Sequence record: OR896157.1
DNA length: 64,000 bases
Origin: a phage
Reading direction: 5' to 3' (one strand)
The translations under genes and the position numbers were made by a program. Positions 21,673-59,241 of the stretch are shown here, in pieces. A model generated the notes under the pieces. That model did no database searches, was not told the origin of the DNA, and saw only the letters and a list, made by a program, of their open reading frames with translations. Numbering within the stretch: the first letter of the stretch is position 1; each line of letters opens with the position of its first letter.

Positions 21673-22446
21673 TTAAATTTTTACTTTTGTTGGACGCTTA
21701 AAGAACGAATGAGTGCTATCGTCTTTAGCATGCTCAAAAGTTGCAGAGAATTCAATAATTCCACGATAATCCATCGGAACTGCTTTTGGTAATGAGCCAT
21801 AAACAGTAGCACCGTTTTCAAGACGGACAGTCATTTTGACTTGCATTCCATAATAGTCTTCCCAGCACTTAACTGAAACGACTTTACCTTTCACTGTTTG
21901 CTTACCAGTGGGTGCTTCACCTTTATTCTTTTTGAATGATTCATATAGTTCATCAAAGAATTTCTTAGAAGCTTCTTGAATAGCCATAAGAATGTTCTTA
22001 TGAGCTCTGACTTCAACCATCATAACAGTGGTGAAATCTTCAAGTTCCCAGCGTTTGTAAGGCTCACGGACCTCGATAGGGCAACCGTAAAGCTTAAGTT
22101 CAACATACATTGCTGCAGTTAAACGAAGTTTCCACCATCCATGGTCTCTTGTGTACTCTGGTTTGTCAAAGTAATCAAGTTCCGTAACGTATGGAAGATA
22201 ACTACCAGCGTGATATGCTTCCACTTCGCCATGTTCATTTTCCCAGAGATAACCATCGAACGGAGCATGTGGACGATCATCAATTCCCCAGGTTGGAGCA
22301 ACCACCTTATCAAATCCTTCACGACCGTAGTGGGTCTTCGCCCATCCAGCATTCAATTCCAAAGCGCGTTCTTCAACTTTCGCCCGGCGTGCAGCATGTG
22401 CTTTACGATTTTCATCTAAGATTGAGTCGATGATTTCAGTTAGCAT
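21673..22446 (-). CDS. hypothetical protein (257 aa)
   Basis: track ORF trimmed to ATG at 22446 with GGAGA SD, 23 nt downstream of predicted TSS. Confidence 0.55.
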   Translation of the reverse strand: MLTEIIDSILDENRKAHAARRAKVEERALELNAGWAKTHYGREGFDKVVAPTWGIDDRPHAPFDGYLWENEHGEVEAYHAGSYLPYVTELDYFDKPEYTRDHGWWKLRLTAAMYVELKLYGCPIEVREPYKRWELEDFTTVMMVEVRAHKNILMAIQEASKKFFDELYESFKKNKGEAPTGKQTVKGKVVSVKCWEDYYGMQVKMTVRLENGATVYGSLPKAVPMDYRGIIEFSATFEHAKDDSTHSFFKRPTKVKI

Positions 22447-37102: not shown

Positions 37103-37437
37103 GTTGGCTCCAAAGAAATGACCTTGCGGTCGTAAGTAATTAAGCTTGAAGTTTTAATGCCTTTGCATGGGCCAGAGATAAACTCTACTTCAAACCATGG
37201 ATGCTCATTCATCAGACCCACATCTGGCGAAGTGCAGAGGAACAACGAGCCTTTAAAAGGCCCATCTAAAAATCGATACAGCTTTGGCTCAAGAACTGCC
37301 CCATCTGAAAATTTGATATGCAGAATATTAATCAAAGATTCTACATTACATTTTCCAGTAGAACGCAAAAAGCGGATATATTCACCTGTAGTCATTCTAA
37401 GGGCCCGAAGGCCCTTATTAAAATTTTCTTTCATCAT
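37018..37437 (-). CDS. hypothetical protein (start ambiguous)
   Basis: 139-aa ORF; ATGATGA coupling start at 37437 has SD, but a GGGCCCGAAGGCCC hairpin lies in codons 8-12; alternative ATG at 37395. Confidence 0.4.
   Translation of the reverse strand: MMKENFNKGLRALRMTTGEYIRFLRSTGKCNVESLINILHIKFSDGAVLEPKLYRFLDGPFKGSLFLCTSPDVGLMNEHPWFEVEFISGPCKGIKTSSLITYDRKVISLEPTWRKLLSTSPTTWLNLSAAGFQTKANRI
37398..37417 (-). terminator. GC hairpin GGGCC-UUCG-GGCCC; copy 3 of 4
   Basis: identical palindrome; inside or just upstream of ORF 37018-37437 start. Confidence 0.45.
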
Positions 37438-37988
37438 TGCATTCCTATCACAAAGAATAATGGAATCATCTCTTCACCAGTAACGTGTGATTGATGAACA
37501 CATGCATAAAATGGACCTTTGAAATGGGCTTCATAGAACTTTTCCATTTCAGGGAGTTTCATTGGTTCTTCTATAATATACAAGATTCTGTTAAGCTTTC
37601 GACCGCGGGCCTTTGAACCACCATCGCTCAGAAAACTTCGCACAGTGTCCATGATAATCATGCGTTTGGCTTCATCTGGATTTGCTTGATGAATGAGTTC
37701 TTTCTCATAACAAGCTCTTATTAGTTTTGCGGTTTCTTCTGAATTTCGTTGATGAGTGCTAATAATCCATACAGTTCCGCCATCATGTAACCAATCTGCT
37801 GCAAATTCGGCAACAGCTTTAGTCTTGCCTGATTGACGTCCGCCATCGATTTTTAGCGTAGCATATTCGCGTAGAATATCTATAGGAGTGTAATGACTTT
37901 CTTTGAGGATTTCTATACAATCATCAGCACGGATTTTGAAGGCGTGCATCAGGGATAGATATGGGGCAAATAGAGATTTTATTTTCAT
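37434..37988 (-). CDS. P-loop NTPase-like protein
   Basis: track ORF (TTG at 38024) trimmed to ATG 37988; Walker A-like GGRQSGKT, Walker B-like LYIIEEP. Confidence 0.45.
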   Translation of the reverse strand: MKIKSLFAPYLSLMHAFKIRADDCIEILKESHYTPIDILREYATLKIDGGRQSGKTKAVAEFAADWLHDGGTVWIISTHQRNSEETAKLIRACYEKELIHQANPDEAKRMIIMDTVRSFLSDGGSKARGRKLNRILYIIEEPMKLPEMEKFYEAHFKGPFYACVHQSHVTGEEMIPLFFVIGMQ

Positions 37989-38029
37989 TTTGTTTACCGT
38001 TAGTGAGGGCCTTCCATGGCTCAAGAATT

Positions 38030-38170
38030 TCCATCAGCTAGCGGGATTGCTAGGACCCTGATTGTAACTGGCTTTACCGCACTTGGGCTCGACCTTTTCA
38101 CAGGTACCAGAAGCTACTTCACTCAGAGGACACGACGTTCATGAGGAGAGGTCCAGGTTGGCTTTTTGAT
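38030..38170 (-). ncRNA. GC-rich non-coding island (candidate structured RNA)
   Basis: ~140 nt markedly more GC-rich than flanks, no credible ORF on either strand. Confidence 0.25.
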
Positions 38171-38176
38171 TGAAGA

Positions 38177-38473
38177 TTAACTAAACGGGTCGTGAAGCTT
38201 ATTACCAATACGACGGAACACTTTAGCTGCAAATTTATTGGAAGGGTTATCAACCATAATTTTGCGCATGTGACCGGTCGCGACTGTTCGAGCAGCCTTA
38301 TAACCAGCAATGTTATCTTTCAAAGTAATTCGACCTTTTCCTTTAGGGTCGTCAATGGTCACTTTGTAAGTTCCCATATCTTCGCCAGGCTTAATTTCTT
38401 CAATCCAGATATAACCACCTGGAACTCGCTTTTGTTCAGCTGCTTCATTTAAAAATTCATTATAGGTTTTCAT
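38177..38473 (-). CDS. internal head protein (capsid-targeting sequence [11 protein letters not shown])
   Basis: 98-aa ORF from internal ATG; N-terminus matches T4 IP capsid-targeting consensus MKTYxEFIxE; adjacent to e as ipII/ipIII in T4. Confidence 0.6.
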
Positions 38474-38954
38474 ATGCTTTCCATGTTCCAACTCGGAATG
38501 TTTCAATTACTCGTTTAGCACGATTTGGTGTCTGACGATACCACTTGGAATTAGCAAGCTCTTTTGCAGCCGCTTCCCATTGTTTTGATTTAAGCAGACG
38601 CATTGATGCTGGGAAACCAGCTACACCTGTTACGCCCATCTGAAACACCATATTAATAAGTGCAGCACGACGAACTCCATCAAGTACATCATATACTGGT
38701 TTTAATACAGCATTTCCGAGAATCCCTCGAGTTGCTTTATCGACGTCTTTCGCAAAAATAGCTTCTGCTTCAGCTTTTGTGATTTGACCATTACATGGAC
38801 GCCCCACAAGCTTATCAAGTTCTCGTTTAGCAGCATCAAGAGAAGGGTCACGTGTCAAAAGGTGACCGATACCGATTGTCCAAAAACCTTCAGTATCTTT
38901 ATAGATTTTAGAATCGTATCCTTCATCGATACGAAGCATGCCAAAAATGTCCAT
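38460..38954 (-). CDS. e: lysozyme (T4 e, endolysin)
   Basis: 164-aa ORF, near-identical core to remembered T4 lysozyme ([32 protein letters not shown]). Confidence 0.96.
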
Positions 38955-38987: not shown

Positions 38988-39467
38988 TTAGCATTCCCAA
39001 AGAGCGTCTTGAATGACCTTTGGATAAAGTTTCTGCATAACAGAGAAAAGACTTGGGCCCATTACTACATTCCACATACGCGGCTGAATCAAAGCAAACG
39101 CATCGATTTCCGGAAATTCGTTTCCATCTTCGTCCGTATGATATGCCGTGCAAATACAATCTCTGAATTGAGAGTGTTCCACTGGGAACGGATATTCAAA
39201 GATATGTATATCTTTATTGCTAGCATAATCATGTCGGCCTAGGTCCACTAGATGTCCTGGATTATAATCAACGAATCCACTTTCTTCTCTGCATTCACGA
39301 ACTGCAGCTTCAAGAGGAGATTCACCTGGCTCGATATGACCCTTTGGAATGTCCCAGCGAGATGGTCCACCACCTAGTCCAGAATTAGTTACTCGACCCA
39401 TGAACAGTTCTTTGTCTTTTGTAAAGAACAGAATACCAGCAGAGACTTCTTTAATTTTCTTACTCAA
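38988..39467 (-). CDS. nudE: Nudix hydrolase NudE
   Basis: 159-aa ORF; Nudix box GHIEPGESPLEAAVRECREESG; adjacent to e. Confidence 0.85.
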   Translation of the reverse strand: MSKKIKEVSAGILFFTKDKELFMGRVTNSGLGGGPSRWDIPKGHIEPGESPLEAAVRECREESGFVDYNPGHLVDLGRHDYASNKDIHIFEYPFPVEHSQFRDCICTAYHTDEDGNEFPEIDAFALIQPRMWNVVMGPSLFSVMQKLYPKVIQDALWEC

Positions 39468-45656: not shown

Positions 45657-46310
45657 TTACTTAGTTTCTACCTTTTTGAGTGCTTTGGCACGAACGTCCA
45701 CACGGTGCGCCGACTCTATATATTTGCGAACTTCTTTAGCTATGCCAGTAGTGTAAGCTACAGTTTCGACTGTCGTATACAAGTCCATCAGCTCAGGAGT
45801 GTCGATGTTGCTGATGTTACGACCTCTGCGGATTTTAGCAAACTGAGTTTTAAGTGCAGCACCATCTTTAGAAATTTCGTTGAGAAGAGCGAGAATCTTC
45901 TCATACTTGTTTACGATGCCTTTAACGTCAAACTTGTAAAGGTCTGCGCTAACTTTAGGAGCCGGCGTCGCTTTAGGTGTCTGAACTGGAGCTGCAGGTT
46001 TAACTGCTGGTGCCGCTTTAGGAGCAGGAGCTTTCACTGCAGCAGCTTTAGGTTCTTTTGGTGCTTTTGCCGGAGATTTAATGCCTCTCAGAGTTTTAAA
46101 AGCATTTTGTACTTTGTAATAATCTTGTGGATTAGAAGTTCCAATACCATAAAGTTTTTGGACTGATGCAGCAAATTTCATGAAGTCGTTACGTTCGCCA
46201 GGAGGAACTAAATCCATAGCACTCTGCCACTTCATTTTAGTCATGCGTTCGCCAGCTTCAGTAATCATGTTGAAGCTAGATTCTGTAATAAATTCTTTAA
46301 AGTTAAGCAT
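45657..46310 (-). CDS. internal head protein-like (capsid-targeting sequence MLNFKEFITE) with Ala/Pro/Lys-rich linker
   Basis: track ORF trimmed to internal ATG 46310; N-terminus resembles T4 IP targeting peptide; low-complexity KAPKEPKAAAVKAPAPKAAPAVKPAAP segment. Confidence 0.5.
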   Translation of the reverse strand: MLNFKEFITESSFNMITEAGERMTKMKWQSAMDLVPPGERNDFMKFAASVQKLYGIGTSNPQDYYKVQNAFKTLRGIKSPAKAPKEPKAAAVKAPAPKAAPAVKPAAPVQTPKATPAPKVSADLYKFDVKGIVNKYEKILALLNEISKDGAALKTQFAKIRRGRNISNIDTPELMDLYTTVETVAYTTGIAKEVRKYIESAHRVDVRAKALKKVETK

Positions 46311-46329
46311 AATAGGGTTCCGTGTTAGT

Positions 46330-46585
46330 TTATTGTTGTATTTATATGCAACAACACCCCGTCCGAAGACAGGGCGTAAGAATCGACAGCACCACCTACT
46401 GGCAGATGGCCTGCAGAAGTTCATTCCCAGCGACTCGGAGGCATCAGTCTCGCCCCTGGGAATATAGCGTCGTGGAGGTGTCACTTTGCAGGTGATTAAC
46501 AACCGGTGGCTCCGTAGAACCGTTGCGGCAAGGGCTAACCTTCTCTTCTAACACGACGTCTTCATACGAGAGCTGCAACTCTCTG
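46330..46585 (-). ncRNA. GC-rich structured non-coding island (candidate ncRNA)
   Basis: ~250 nt far more GC-rich than flanks; minus-strand CCCUGUC-UUCG-GACGGGG hairpin at 46353-46370; reading frames through it give R/P/C/G-rich junk. Confidence 0.3.
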
Positions 46586-46587
46586 TA

Positions 46588-46788
46588 TTAGCTTAGATGC
46601 TTAACCGCATCGCAATCGTAAACAAAATAACTCGTTCCATATGGGTCAGAGATATTATTGAAATAATCATAAACTTTCTGTTCAGCTTCTCCATCAGAGT
46701 CAGCATCTACTGTGAACAGTTCTTCTTTAATTCTTCCGCCGTCTTCCATGTATTCTGCGATTTTATAACGTACTTGAACTAAACGCAT
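46588..46788 (-). CDS. hypothetical acidic protein
   Basis: 66-aa ORF. Confidence 0.4.
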   Translation of the reverse strand: MRLVQVRYKIAEYMEDGGRIKEELFTVDADSDGEAEQKVYDYFNNISDPYGTSYFVYDCDAVKHLS

Positions 46789-46803
46789 TGTGTTTTCCTC
46801 ATT

Positions 46804-46879
46804 TGGTGCCGGTTAACGGATTCGAACCGCTGACCCTCTCATTACAAATGAGCTGCTCTACCAACTGAGCTAAACCGGC
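46804..46879 (-). tRNA. tRNA-Thr (anticodon UGU)
   Basis: manual fold: acceptor GCCGGUU/AACCGGC, D GCUC..GAGC, anticodon loop UUUGUAA, T-loop GGUUCGAAUCC, CCA encoded. Confidence 0.8.
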
Positions 46880-46880
46880 T

Positions 46881-46965
46881 TGGTGCATCAAGAGGGATTC
46901 GAACCCTCAATCCTTTCGGCGGGGCATTTTAAGTGCCCTGTGTATACCAGTTCCACCATTGATGC
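46881..46965 (-). tRNA. tRNA-Leu (anticodon UAA), class II
   Basis: acceptor GCAUCAA/UUGAUGC, anticodon loop CUUAAAA, 13-nt variable arm, T-arm GAGGG-UUCGAAU-CCCUC. Confidence 0.8.
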
Positions 46966-46971
46966 GAAATT

Positions 46972-47056
46972 TGGAGCTAGGAGTGAGATTCGAACTCACG
47001 AAGGGATACCCGGCGGATTTGCAATCCGCTGCCTTTGGCCACTCAGCAACCCTAGC
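46972..47056 (-). tRNA. tRNA with class-II architecture and anticodon GCA (Cys-type)
   Basis: acceptor GCUAGGG/UCCUAGC, anticodon stem-loop GCGGA-UUGCAAA-UCCGC, 13-nt variable arm CGGGUAUCCCUUC; assignment tentative. Confidence 0.5.
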
Positions 47057-47060
47057 AAAT

Positions 47061-47138
47061 TGGTCGAGGTAGAGGGATTCGAACCCGTCGACCTGTGGAT
47101 TAGAAGTCCACTGCTCTATCCAGCTGAGCTATACCCCG
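47061..47138 (-). tRNA. tRNA-Arg (anticodon UCU)
   Basis: acceptor CGGGGUA/UACCUCG, D GCUC..GAGC, anticodon loop CUUCUAA; T-stem has only 3 clean pairs. Confidence 0.7.
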
Positions 47139-47142
47139 AGTG

Positions 47143-47268
47143 TGTTCAGACAGGACTCGAACCTGTAAGCATGTTCTTGCGGCGTTTTACCACCGTCGTC
47201 AGCATATGATTCAATATGCGAACTCAAAAGGTGTTGGACCCCTTGTCTACCAATTCCAGCACTGAACA
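47143..47268 (-). ncRNA. 126-nt tRNA-like stable RNA candidate (possibly rnaC/rnaD-type)
   Basis: 7-bp acceptor-like helix UGUUCAG/CUGAACA and canonical T-arm ACAGG-UUCGAGU-CCUGU enclose ~93 nt with D-loop-like AAUUGGUAGA but no canonical anticodon arm. Confidence 0.4.
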
Positions 47269-47278
47269 ACTTTATTTA

Positions 47279-47503
47279 TTACATATCAACTTGAGTAAAC
47301 CAGTTGATTTTGAAATACTCATCAAAATGAAGAGCAGGTTCAACTTGAGTATCTTCCTCAAGAAGAATTAAATTCTTTCTTACAATCGGGTCAAGATGAG
47401 TTGTGTTTAAGCAGCTATCATGCCAATATGTAAGAACTCGATTTGATTCAGTATCAACGAGATAACGAACATTCATATCAGGATGTCGGTACAGATTAAT
47501 CAT
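47279..47503 (-). CDS. hypothetical protein
   Basis: 74-aa ORF. Confidence 0.45.
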   Translation of the reverse strand: MINLYRHPDMNVRYLVDTESNRVLTYWHDSCLNTTHLDPIVRKNLILLEEDTQVEPALHFDEYFKINWFTQVDM

Positions 47504-49971: not shown

Positions 49972-49978
49972 AATTTGT

Positions 49979-50070
49979 ACGGAACGCCTGGATTCGAACC
50001 AGGTTAAATTGCGATTGACGTCACAATTTATCTTATGAAGGCCATGCCTCTACCATATCCGAACGTTCCG
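49979..50070 (-). tRNA. atypical tRNA-like gene / possible pseudo-tRNA with CAU-type anticodon loop (UUCAUAA) and a 9-bp hairpin insertion
   Basis: perfect 7-bp acceptor CGGAACG/CGUUCCG and T-arm CCUGG-UUCGAAU-CCAGG, but weak D and anticodon stems and a 26-nt perfect hairpin before the T-arm. Confidence 0.35.
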
Positions 50071-50121
50071 TCAAAAACGCTACTCGGCTTACGGCTTAGG
50101 CAATTCCTCGAACCGATAATT

Positions 50122-52063: not shown

Positions 52064-52151
52064 TGGTGGGGAGTGATGGAGTCGAACCACCCGAGTCGCA
52101 ATGACAACAGATTTACAGTCTGCACCGCTACCTCTACGGAATTAACTCCCC
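52064..52151 (-). tRNA. tRNA-Tyr (anticodon GUA), class II
   Basis: acceptor GGGGAGU/ACUCCCC, anticodon stem-loop GCAGA-CUGUAAA-UCUGU, long variable arm; 5 nt between acceptor and D-stem. Confidence 0.75.
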
Positions 52152-57505: not shown

Positions 57506-59241
57506 TGGAAATGATTAGTAACTCTCTTCAATGGTTCACAGGGGTTGTTGAAGATAGAATGGACCCGCTTAAGCGTGGTCGCGTACGCGTAAGAGTGCAT
57601 GGGCTTCATCCATTCCAGAAGACTCAAGGCCCTGTGATGGGTGTTCCAACTGAAGACCTTCCATGGATGAGTCCAATATTTCCAGTGACATCTGCAGCTA
57701 TTTCTGGCGTTGGCGGTTCAGTTACTGGCCCTGTTGAAGGAACTCACGTGTATGGTCATTTTTTAGACAAATACAGACAAAACGGAATTATTCTTGGAAC
57801 GTATGCAGCAAACGCAACTGCTCGTCCAAATAGAACTGAAGGATTCTCTGACCCGACTGGACAGTATCCTCGATATCTTGGTAATGACACTAACGCATTG
57901 AACCAAGGCGGAACCGAAGGCGACGATTATACAGCAAACATAGTTCAAGATAACAATCTTGACACCGGTATTAATCCAGATGATACCGACCTTGCTAATA
58001 TCCCAGAAGATAATAATCCTAACTATACGATTGAAGACATGATTCGCCGTGATGAAGGTCTTCGTTTGAAAGTTTACCGTGATTTAAACGGGCGCGGGTG
58101 GACAGTAGGGTTCGGTCACTATATTAGTGATAACCCAAATTTAACTAACGACCAAATAAATTCCGAATTATCTAAACAGGTTGGGAGAGAAGTAACTGGA
58201 AATCCAGGCTCTATTTCAATGGATGAAGCTTCAAAACTGTTTAAAGAAGATTTAGAAAAAGTTCAAAGAGACATGAGAAATAATGCAGCTGTTTCTCCAG
58301 TCTATATGAAAGTGAACAGATCTCGTCAAATGGCTCTTGAAAATATGAGTTTCCAGATGGGCATAGGCGGATTAGCCAAATTCACAAAAATGCTAGACGC
58401 CATGTTAATAGGCGATTGGAAAACTGCCTATAATGAAGCAAGAAATTCTCGTTGGTTCCAACAGACCAAAGGACGAGCATCTCGTGTTTCAATGATTATA
58501 TTGACCGGTAACTTGGAGTCATATGGTATTCCAGTATCTCCTCCAAGCCCAAAAAGTTTATCAGCGGCTGCTGTAGCTATGGCAACTGGGTCATCTGACC
58601 CGTGGGGACCACCAGTTCCTCAAACCGGAAGAATACTTTTTAAAGAACCGCCATCGTCATATAACGGTCAATATCCATATGTCCATACAATGGAAACTGA
58701 GTCTGGACATATTCAAGAATTTGATGATACTCCAGGATATGAACGTTATCGTATTGTTCATCCAACCGGAACATACGAAGAAGTTGCTCCTGACGGACGA
58801 AGAACAAGAAAAACTGTAGGCGACCTTTATGATATGACCGGTGGTGACGGAAATATTTTAATTTCAGGCGATAAGAAAGTCAACGTCGGTGGTGATGAAA
58901 CTTATTACAATATGGCTAATAAGATTAATCAAATCGATGGAAACAATACTCTCTTTATTCGTGGTGATGAAACTAAAACTATTGAAGGCGACGGAACCCT
59001 TTATGTGAAGGGTAATATCAAAATTGTTGTTGATGGAAATGCTGATATTCTTGTGAAGGGCGATGCAAAAACACAAGTTGAAGGCAACCACGACTACACT
59101 GTCAATGGTAATGTCACTTGGTCTGTTAAAGGTAACGTGTCAATGAATGTCACCGGAAACTGGGCTGAAACTATGCAGACAATGAGTTCTAAAGCATCTG
59201 GTCAGTACACTGTCGACGGTTCACGTATCGATATCGGTTGA
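57505..59241 (+). CDS. 5: baseplate hub / cell-puncturing protein gp5 with lysozyme domain
   Basis: 578-aa ORF; internal lysozyme domain (YTIEDMIRRDEGLRLKVYRD, GWTVGFGHYIS); C-terminal beta-helix repeats (VxGxxxxx). Confidence 0.93.
   Translation: MEMISNSLQWFTGVVEDRMDPLKRGRVRVRVHGLHPFQKTQGPVMGVPTEDLPWMSPIFPVTSAAISGVGGSVTGPVEGTHVYGHFLDKYRQNGIILGTYAANATARPNRTEGFSDPTGQYPRYLGNDTNALNQGGTEGDDYTANIVQDNNLDTGINPDDTDLANIPEDNNPNYTIEDMIRRDEGLRLKVYRDLNGRGWTVGFGHYISDNPNLTNDQINSELSKQVGREVTGNPGSISMDEASKLFKEDLEKVQRDMRNNAAVSPVYMKVNRSRQMALENMSFQMGIGGLAKFTKMLDAMLIGDWKTAYNEARNSRWFQQTKGRASRVSMIILTGNLESYGIPVSPPSPKSLSAAAVAMATGSSDPWGPPVPQTGRILFKEPPSSYNGQYPYVHTMETESGHIQEFDDTPGYERYRIVHPTGTYEEVAPDGRRTRKTVGDLYDMTGGDGNILISGDKKVNVGGDETYYNMANKINQIDGNNTLFIRGDETKTIEGDGTLYVKGNIKIVVDGNADILVKGDAKTQVEGNHDYTVNGNVTWSVKGNVSMNVTGNWAETMQTMSSKASGQYTVDGSRIDIG

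Follow-up and report, generated by a model that had tools for sequence, protein, structure and literature searches.

What is the short GC-rich stretch that separates an internal-protein (ip)-like gene from the vs.8 homologue in a T4-like phage: a gene in its own right, a control element of its neighbour, a DNA cassette or a small coding region? The question arises at positions 38030-38170 of a 64,000-nt stretch of phage DNA (OR896157.1, hereafter the window). An earlier note, made from the sequence alone, had described this island as rich in GC and devoid of a credible ORF, had placed it between an NTPase-like gene and an internal-protein gene, and had suggested that it may share an RNA element or an acquisition mechanism with another island at 46.3-46.6 kb. 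The phage is a Karamvirus-type T4-like, with 99% identity to Enterobacter phage PG7 relatives across the vs.8/island locus. The neighbouring genes had been correctly recognized, as they match the terminase-ATPase-like vs.8 and an ip-like gene. The genes nudE, e, ip-like and vs.8 all lie on the minus strand, and the island is housed in the 188-nt gap (37989-38176) between the last two. Its GC content is 0.511, against a mean of 0.394 across the window (sd 0.043, 141-nt sliding windows; z = 2.70), a value that only 1.4% of the sliding windows reach, and the elevation holds equally against the local background of 35-41 kb (z = 2.84). The remaining sliding windows of equal GC fall mostly in tRNA clusters and in the 46.3-46.6 kb island, and those outside tRNAs lie at 951-1112, 1621-1782, 22251-22412, 45931-46092 and 57521-57722.

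The supposed lack of an ORF was borne out by six-frame translation of 21 homologues, in which no frame on either strand combines an open reading with a conserved start and freedom from frame-breaking indels; the 1-nt indels fall within the most conserved stretch of the element. One small ORF, of 63 aa on the minus strand (38119-38310), shares part of its sequence with the ip-like gene but is read in a different frame. Another, of 42 aa on the plus strand (38016-38144), runs antisense across the element and has been annotated in a single relative, KaAlpha (KAALPHA_132, L002 2120-2248); it has no PHROG match, and in other genera it is disrupted by 1-nt indels or lacks a start codon. Since no open frame with a conserved start was found in the 21 homologues, this annotation is likely spurious, a gene-caller artefact. 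A leader peptide of 7 codons (MNVVSSE) and an upstream ORF beginning at AUGGA were also considered and set aside on inspection, the frame and length of each varying among relatives.

Homologue searches gave a different picture at the nucleotide level. With the island alone as the query, blastn found 767 phage records (787 places), T4 included, compared with 87 records for the surrounding 1.5 kb. The carriers comprise Karamvirus, Tequatrovirus, Mosigvirus-like phages, Gaprivervirus, Tegunavirus, Kanagawavirus, Moonvirus, Gelderlandvirus and Klebsiella T4-likes. Comparison with the same locus in relatives revealed vs.8 as the constant neighbour, following the element directly in at least nine genera, with ip genes, denV or hypothetical genes on the other side; the association with internal-protein genes stressed by the earlier note is thus incidental. 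Outside Karamvirus, the RNA core retains 80-93% nucleotide identity, compared with only 41-48% identity for the vs.8 protein, which is present in 1010 records. The element is therefore far better conserved than its neighbouring genes, although gapped pairwise identity is by itself uninformative on conservation, because non-homologous flanks likewise score about 0.75.

A covariance model (R1), constructed from ten long-form copies with a structure derived by hand, gave a single match in the 64-kb window (100.9 bits, E 6.5e-28), which delimits the whole element in Table 1, and identified 41 copies among loci fetched from relatives. The element measures about 145-165 nt across its forms and about 160 nt in the window phage, and in Tevenvirinae its 3' end lies 18-27 nt ahead of the vs.8 start codon. 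Second copies are located upstream of ip genes in two T4-likes (L015 and L027). A partial tandem duplication was observed in PEi20-like and related phages (L014 5051-5306 and L017 8965-9220), arranged as 5' domain and core, Karamvirus-type hairpin, a diverged second 5' domain and core, and a shared tail.

The surroundings of the element are more fluid than the element itself. The denV gene, which in PG7 is placed between the ip-like gene and the RNA element, is missing at 38176/38177 of the window, and CC31 contains both denV and an extra ip-like ORF at the same site. Position 38176/38177 is thus an indel hotspot bounded by the RNA element, and the gap sequence is intact in the window phage, PG7 and CC31 alike, with or without denV. 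PG7, CC31 and T4 each have denV beside a complete element, and an origin of the island as the scar of a denV deletion was rejected on this ground.

Alignment of the copies shows a conserved predicted fold, consisting of a helix (P1) around a hairpin and the 5' strand of a pseudoknot, a three-way junction formed by Px, P2 and P3, the 3' strand of the pseudoknot and a T4-type tail (Table 1). All five pairs of P1 vary on both sides; pair 8:62 occurs as GC in 18, CG in 13 and AU in 8 sequences, with none unpaired, and P1 pairing is also maintained across phage families. In the pseudoknot, which joins columns 12-15 with 117-120, 89.9% of cells are paired, as against 66.2% in shuffles and 18-40% in slid controls, and the covariation score of 0.493 (0.132 when shuffled) was reached by 0 of 500 shuffles. 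Its pair 14:118 appears as CG 19, UA 11, AU 4, GC 1 and UG 1, again with none unpaired; in T4 the corresponding strands read CUG and CAG. The pseudoknot was absent from the alignment model and was noticed only afterwards, and it therefore constitutes an independent test of the fold. Moreover, an unbiased scan of all column pairs ranked a P1 pair first and a pseudoknot pair second. Over the R1 alignment, 93% of cells are paired, compared with 84% in shuffles and 20-46% in slid-partner controls, and covariation is 0.232 against 0.085 (0 of 500), the nested helices being scored here on an alignment fitted to those same helices. The covarying haplotypes may amount to only about ten independent events.

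Table 1. Coordinates in the window of the RNA element, its predicted structural parts and the genes of the locus
Feature	Position	Strand	Remarks
Whole structured RNA element	38007-38168	minus	Model R1; T4-type long form plus Karamvirus-specific insert
P1, 5' strand AAAGC	38161-38165	minus	Partner 38110-38114; outermost pair is an A-C mismatch in the window phage
P1, 3' strand GCUUC	38110-38114	minus	Partner 38161-38165
Pseudoknot, 5' strand CCUG	38154-38157	minus	Within the P1 loop; partner 38057-38060
Pseudoknot, 3' strand CAGG	38057-38060	minus	Partner 38154-38157
P1a hairpin CUCA..GAAC / GUCC..UGAG	38122-38145	minus	Variable tip; invariant among long forms
Px, 5' strand CUGGU	38106-38110	minus	Closes the three-way junction
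Px, 3' strand A-G-CCAG	38068-38073	minus	Partner of 38106-38110
P2 hairpin ACCU-GUGAAA-AGGU	38092-38105	minus	Nearly invariant core; 100% paired
P3 hairpin GCC-CAAG-UGC	38079-38088	minus	Core; two pairs solid, third usually mismatched
Karamvirus-specific inserted hairpin CUAGC-AAUCCC-GCUAG	38038-38053	minus	Read straight from the sequences
AUGGA motif	38030-38034	minus	Unpaired, conserved; GGA invariant in alignment A1 (21 sequences)
P5 hairpin GCC-AUGGAA-GGC	38009-38020	minus	GGA in loop; 18 nt ahead of the vs.8 start codon; invariant; T4-type forms only
vs.8 homologue	37434-37988	minus	P-loop, terminase-ATPase-like protein; 3' neighbour, outside the RNA
ip-like gene, 98 aa	38177-38473	minus	MKTYNEF leader; 5' neighbour, outside the RNA
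Lysozyme e	38460-38954	minus	
nudE	38988-39467	minus	

The junction and loop nucleotides of the three-way junction are nearly invariant, and its helices show compensatory variants. Px occurs as CUGG/CCAG and as CCC/GGG, UCC/GGG, ACC/GGU or ACU/AGU, and the unbiased scan brought out an extra junction pair, 70:103 (UA 15, AU 10, UG 7, CG 3). P2, which falls in a 32-nt stretch common to other phage families, varies to GCCU/AGGC in two contexts. P3 (variants GUC/GAC and GCG/CGC) is the weakest core helix, its third pair being weakly supported. P1a drops one whole base pair (CUCA/UGAG to CUA/UAG) in phiR1-RT and NM4.3; its equivalent is a short hairpin in T4 types and is absent from compact forms. 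As P1a (within the long forms) and P5 are invariant, the alignment neither supports nor opposes their pairing. The Karamvirus-type insert covaries in L014 and L017 (CCAUC/GAUGG and CCACC/GGUGG). The T4-type 3' tail has two invariant GGA motifs, one in AUGGA and the other in the P5 loop, and the cross-family core has none. An additional helix, P4 (ACAU/AUGU), is weakly supported and overlaps the pseudoknot strand in T4-type forms, and a pairing of CCUCUCC with the vs.8 ribosome-binding site was not conserved on inspection; neither was retained. Folded as a single sequence, the element is not more stable than shuffles (z +1.55 for the minus and +0.50 for the plus strand). The strand was taken from gene and tRNA orientation, the wobble test being indecisive (G-U 12 vs A-C 14).

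Known RNA classes did not account for the element. ARAGORN called 19 tRNAs in the window, none at 38.0-38.2 kb, and scanning the element with Rfam 15, the tRNA model included, yielded nothing at the gathering threshold; at E up to 10, there were two spurious matches (E 3.6-5.6, 10-12 bits, against gathering scores of 53-55). The Rfam scan proposed by the earlier note assigned the element to no known family, and the element is not a tRNA. Elsewhere in the window, the two tRNA searches differed in two places: a tRNA-like match at 52067-52151 on the minus strand, the 20th for the Rfam tRNA model (39.1 bits), has no ARAGORN call, and a 95-nt tRNA-Met called by ARAGORN at 49977-50071 on the minus strand is missing from the Rfam gathering-level list. 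Neither in the window phage nor in T4 was a promoter or terminator consensus matched on the gene strand at the element. The comparative data show the element to be a conserved, pseudoknotted non-coding RNA family of predicted structure, absent from Rfam and present in T4. No description of it was found in the literature searched; a 2023 survey lists thousands of unnamed candidate RNAs obtained from IMG/VR, and the motif may be among them.

The family extends beyond T4-type phages. A metagenomic scan with a loose pattern, in which true copies made up 3 of the 80 loci returned and the rest was noise, led to a compact form on L120, the contig of a T1-like siphovirus, with P1, Px, P2 and P3 present and the P1a hairpin absent. 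It is located in a non-coding gap of about 670 nt, with a consensus-like promoter site upstream and with tRNA-Arg and tRNA-Met genes on the same strand about 200 nt downstream; the larger RNA region of this contig matched no Rfam family besides its tRNAs. From this region, blastn reached Klebsiella siphoviruses, Pylas (Schitoviridae), Phapecoctavirus (DE16, SF1-1 and phiWec188) and PsgM04F. The compact copies of the T1-like siphoviruses, Pylas, Phapecoctavirus and PsgM04F score 32-47 bits, and all eight that were examined share the strand of neighbouring tRNA genes, at distances of 100-700 nt from these, with vs.8 absent. Identity in the three-way-junction core is about 90% in T1-like siphoviruses, Pylas and Phapecoctavirus, and sequence-level sharing with the other families is limited to 32 nt (38074-38105). 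P1 (GAAUG/CAUUC, GAGUG/CACUC) and Px (ACC/GGU, ACU/AGU) covary between families, and P1 is fully paired in the combined alignment. The cross-family link consists of this near-identical 32-nt core together with P1 and Px pairing, the E-values being rough. These comparisons show that the predicted RNA core has been exchanged between unrelated phage families.

In DE16, SF1-1, phiWec188 and PsgM04F, a segment of about 186 nt that includes the core directly follows tRNA-Thr (L191 1423-1608), and in DE16 and PsgM04F the RNA itself starts about 100 nt past the preceding tRNA and does not abut it. ESCO13 (L199 700-705) and most other Phapecoctaviruses are without this segment and give no covariance-model match, and the flanks are 98-100% identical. 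Since DE16 carries the core and ESCO13 does not, the core behaves as a gained or lost cassette. In non-T4 phages, a further covarying helix encloses the core (GUUGUGAC/GUCACAAC vs GUUGUGAA/UUCACAAC), and long hairpin modules flank it. These modules are repeated (L120 7700-8000, L190, L191 and L193-L198) and follow the pattern ACACAAC..AAGAGCAUUG...CAGUGCUCUU..GUUGUG; their ends, GUUGUG and CACAAC, could pair in alternative ways. In Klebsiella phage Pylas, a 1-kb gap without annotation holds an uncalled tRNA-like structure 3' of the core (L190, about 1640-1710). A 9-bp stem closes this domain, in which GCGGUUCGAUUCCGC resembles a T-arm and a hairpin resembles a D-arm.

The second island (46320-46600, minus strand) is likewise conserved and unannotated. 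It is flanked by an ip-like gene with its start at 46309 and by a 65-aa ORF next after tRNA-Thr. Its folding is more stable than that of shuffles (z -2.2), and it has a terminator-like hairpin at its end and shows no Rfam match; it is unrelated to T4 rnaC/rnaD and to the RNA of the other families, and is probably another stable RNA. Across 45800-47300, R1 scored at most 2.7 bits with filters off. Pairwise alignment of the islands, a check that the earlier note had proposed, was marginal, 11 of 300 shuffles scoring equally, and the 191 phage records that blastn found for the second island are a different set from those of the first. The suggestion of a shared RNA element therefore holds for the type of the first island, an RNA-type non-coding element as indicated by covariation, but not for the sharing, as R1 finds one copy in 64 kb. 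A shared acquisition mechanism gains indirect support for the first island only, its core being a cassette in unrelated families that is present or absent in near-identical Phapecoctaviruses.

In T4, the element (L004 2320-2442; NC_000866 64819-64941, minus strand) is concealed by an annotation. The vs.8 ORF, annotated with 219 aa (L004 1754-2413; NC_000866 64253-64912), reads through it, and its start falls inside the RNA element. The closest relatives of T4 have stops within the stretch matching the vs.8 extension, and protein-level homology starts only at PYLSLM; these two observations imply that the T4 vs.8 start was probably annotated too far upstream. Translation probably begins at the downstream ATG (MRTFLTGPYLSLM) instead, for a protein of about 175 aa. 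As conserved coding sequence, the N-terminal extension was ruled out by the six-frame comparison. Two annotations are affected: the start of vs.8 in T4 needs correction, and the small ORF of KaAlpha falls away as spurious.

Given hundreds of T4-type copies and the presence of the core near tRNAs in unrelated families, the element is probably a functional RNA gene. We lean, if only slightly, towards regarding the island as one copy of an unnamed pseudoknotted RNA family, a horizontally exchanged RNA gene that would be processed from a longer transcript and would act on its own. A stand-alone RNA is favoured because the core occurs beside tRNAs and without a constant downstream gene. As the locus has no promoter or terminator of its own, the RNA would belong to the minus-strand e / ip / vs.8 transcript. 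It may fold while it is being synthesized and then be released by processing as a separate stable RNA, in the manner of T4 rnaC and rnaD, which are processed from the tRNA precursor. Its action would presumably depend on the invariant junction and loops, through the binding of a factor that is common to the hosts of these phages or is widely shared, most plausibly one tied to tRNA or translation, and it may spread between phages as a small cassette via recombination. A bolder and more tentative proposal, possible although the balance is against it, is that the family represents an undescribed class of mobile, pseudoknotted, trans-acting RNA, either a new ribozyme or processor of tRNA transcripts or a decoy or sponge for a host tRNA, translation or defence factor. 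Such a class would span Straboviridae (T4 included), Stephanstirmvirinae, Schitoviridae and T1-like siphoviruses.

The main rival reading assigns the element to the vs.8 operon as a regulatory RNA that acts in cis, as a leader or between cistrons; it would affect translation initiation or mRNA stability of vs.8, perhaps with a protein or ligand attached. This rival is kept alive by the T4-type tail with its two invariant GGA motifs, which is specific to the vs.8 setting, and by strict synteny: in Tevenvirinae, vs.8 follows directly in at least nine genera, the other neighbour varies, and the element stops 18-27 nt short of the start codon. The lack of a promoter or terminator of its own is also in accordance with a leader. 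Furthermore, vs.8 activates EcAvs2 when co-expressed (bioRxiv 10.64898/2026.04.30.721860), which makes tight control of vs.8 plausible. Yet in four other phage groups the core occurs in tRNA clusters without vs.8 or a consistent downstream ORF, second copies are found ahead of ip genes, no sequestration of the ribosome-binding site is visible, and an expression platform of the terminator type is lacking. We consider this reading somewhat unlikely, though worth serious attention.

The other readings have lower standing. A self-cleaving ribozyme or RNA-processing element that cuts polycistronic or tRNA-precursor transcripts, by analogy with the theta ribozymes beside phage tRNAs, would agree with the tRNA-cluster association, the invariant junction nucleotides and the existence of tandem copies, as well as with the order P1(5')/PK(5')/hairpin/P1(3')/junction/PK(3'), in which the pseudoknot is nested much as in HDV-like ribozymes. 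In the comparison with their nested double pseudoknot, the order of P1 and the pseudoknot matches P1/P2, but P1.1 was not seen, P1 has 5-6 bp, and the P3-equivalent has 6-8 bp in long forms and is absent from compact ones. HDV-like ribozymes need a catalytic C at the first J4/2 position (PMC10879173); at the corresponding position, directly behind the 3' strand of Px, the long forms, the T4-type forms and the window phage all have U. With no Rfam ribozyme family matched even at E up to 10, and with the RNA of DE16 and PsgM04F starting about 100 nt past the preceding tRNA, a ribozyme appears improbable. Still less credit is given to a recombination or mobile cassette acting at the DNA level without RNA function, similar to the promoter-early stem-loop (PeSL) type, in which the island would be a homology anchor for the shuffling of ip, denV and tRNA-cluster modules. 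Its position at the edge of the hyperplastic ip/denV region, its near-identity across genera and families and its presence/absence polymorphism would suit such a cassette, but the compensatory changes in four helices and the pseudoknot imply selection on a folded single strand, and neither the promoter by which PMC4122927 defines a PeSL nor a terminator is present. Finally, a small protein, whether the plus-strand 42-aa ORF, the vs.8 N-terminal extension or a short upstream ORF, can practically be dismissed. KaAlpha does annotate the plus-strand ORF, the 219-aa T4 vs.8 does read through the element, and an AUG lies within the conserved AUGGA motif; but no frame is free of stops or frame-breaking 1-nt indels in all genera, conserved start codons are lacking, stops close the T4 extension in the closest relatives, the 42-aa ORF has no PHROG match, and the vs.8 proteins become alignable only from PYLSLM onwards.

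Few genomes have been studied as thoroughly as that of T4, and yet the element has remained unannotated there, hidden under the vs.8 start. The covariation-backed pseudoknot, the nearly invariant junction and the exchange among unrelated families of phages that infect enterobacteria suggest a function worth retaining after transfer, which may connect with tRNA biology or with the nearby anti-defence genes: ip, vs.8 (the Avs2 trigger) and vs.3. The last of these, in the same gene cluster as vs.8, encodes the anti-Thoeris protein TadIV-1 and was expressed in the work on that protein from what the authors called the vs.8 promoter. Given Avs2 activation and TadIV-1, regulation of the vs.8/vs.3 operon could matter, and the question is directly testable in T4.

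Several known systems invite comparison. Like PeSLs (PMC4122927, PMC2839356), the element is a conserved non-coding cassette at the border of variable modules in T4-type phages, and both are linked to modular shuffling. A PeSL consists of a short stem-loop and, after it, an early promoter of sigma-70 type, which in the T4/PST pair reads TTTACW-N17-TAYWAT (PMC4122927), whereas the element has about 145-165 nt, is GC-rich and contains several helices and a pseudoknot; with neither consensus matched, a promoter/terminator cassette was ruled out. The likeness to HDV-like and theta ribozymes (PMC10879173) lies in the nested pseudoknot topology and the association with phage tRNAs, and the differences in helix lengths, in the lack of a hairpin inside P1 in compact forms and in the absence of an Rfam match. 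Neither is the element built like a riboswitch: no terminator was found, and the SD region lies downstream of P5 and is unpaired by eye. The contexts downstream of the element or core differ as well, being vs.8, ip genes, tRNAs or nothing.

The leaders of T4 gene 32 and of ribosomal-protein operons are likewise structured RNAs with pseudoknots that directly precede a coding region of a polycistronic phage or bacterial mRNA. They are gene-specific and autoregulatory, whereas the core also occurs without a downstream ORF in the tRNA clusters of unrelated phages, and it is probably unrelated to them in sequence. The GGA motifs of the T4-type tail presumably resemble CsrA sites or rpsA-leader sites, and Rfam scans at the element matched no family, any CsrB/CsrC models in the library included. 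GOLLD and ROOL are structured RNAs of unclear function, often found in phages or prophages near tRNA genes. In contrast to the element, they are 500-800 nt long, come chiefly from Firmicutes and other hosts outside the enteric bacteria, and have entries in Rfam, where the element gave no such match.

T4 rnaC and rnaD provide the remaining comparison. Homology was not detected, as local alignment was at shuffle level (103-169 of 300 shuffles as good) and blastn-short returned nothing significant. They lie at the 3' end of the tRNA cluster, whereas the element is upstream of vs.8, several kb from the tRNA clusters in both the window phage and T4, and rnaC has tRNA-like 3' ends where the element has a predicted pseudoknot and three-way junction. 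In general character, however, they are alike, all being small, GC-rich, structured and promoterless RNAs or predicted RNAs of unclear role in T-even phages. rnaC and rnaD are cut from a longer transcript and associated with tRNAs, an association that in the present family is displayed by the compact forms of other phages.
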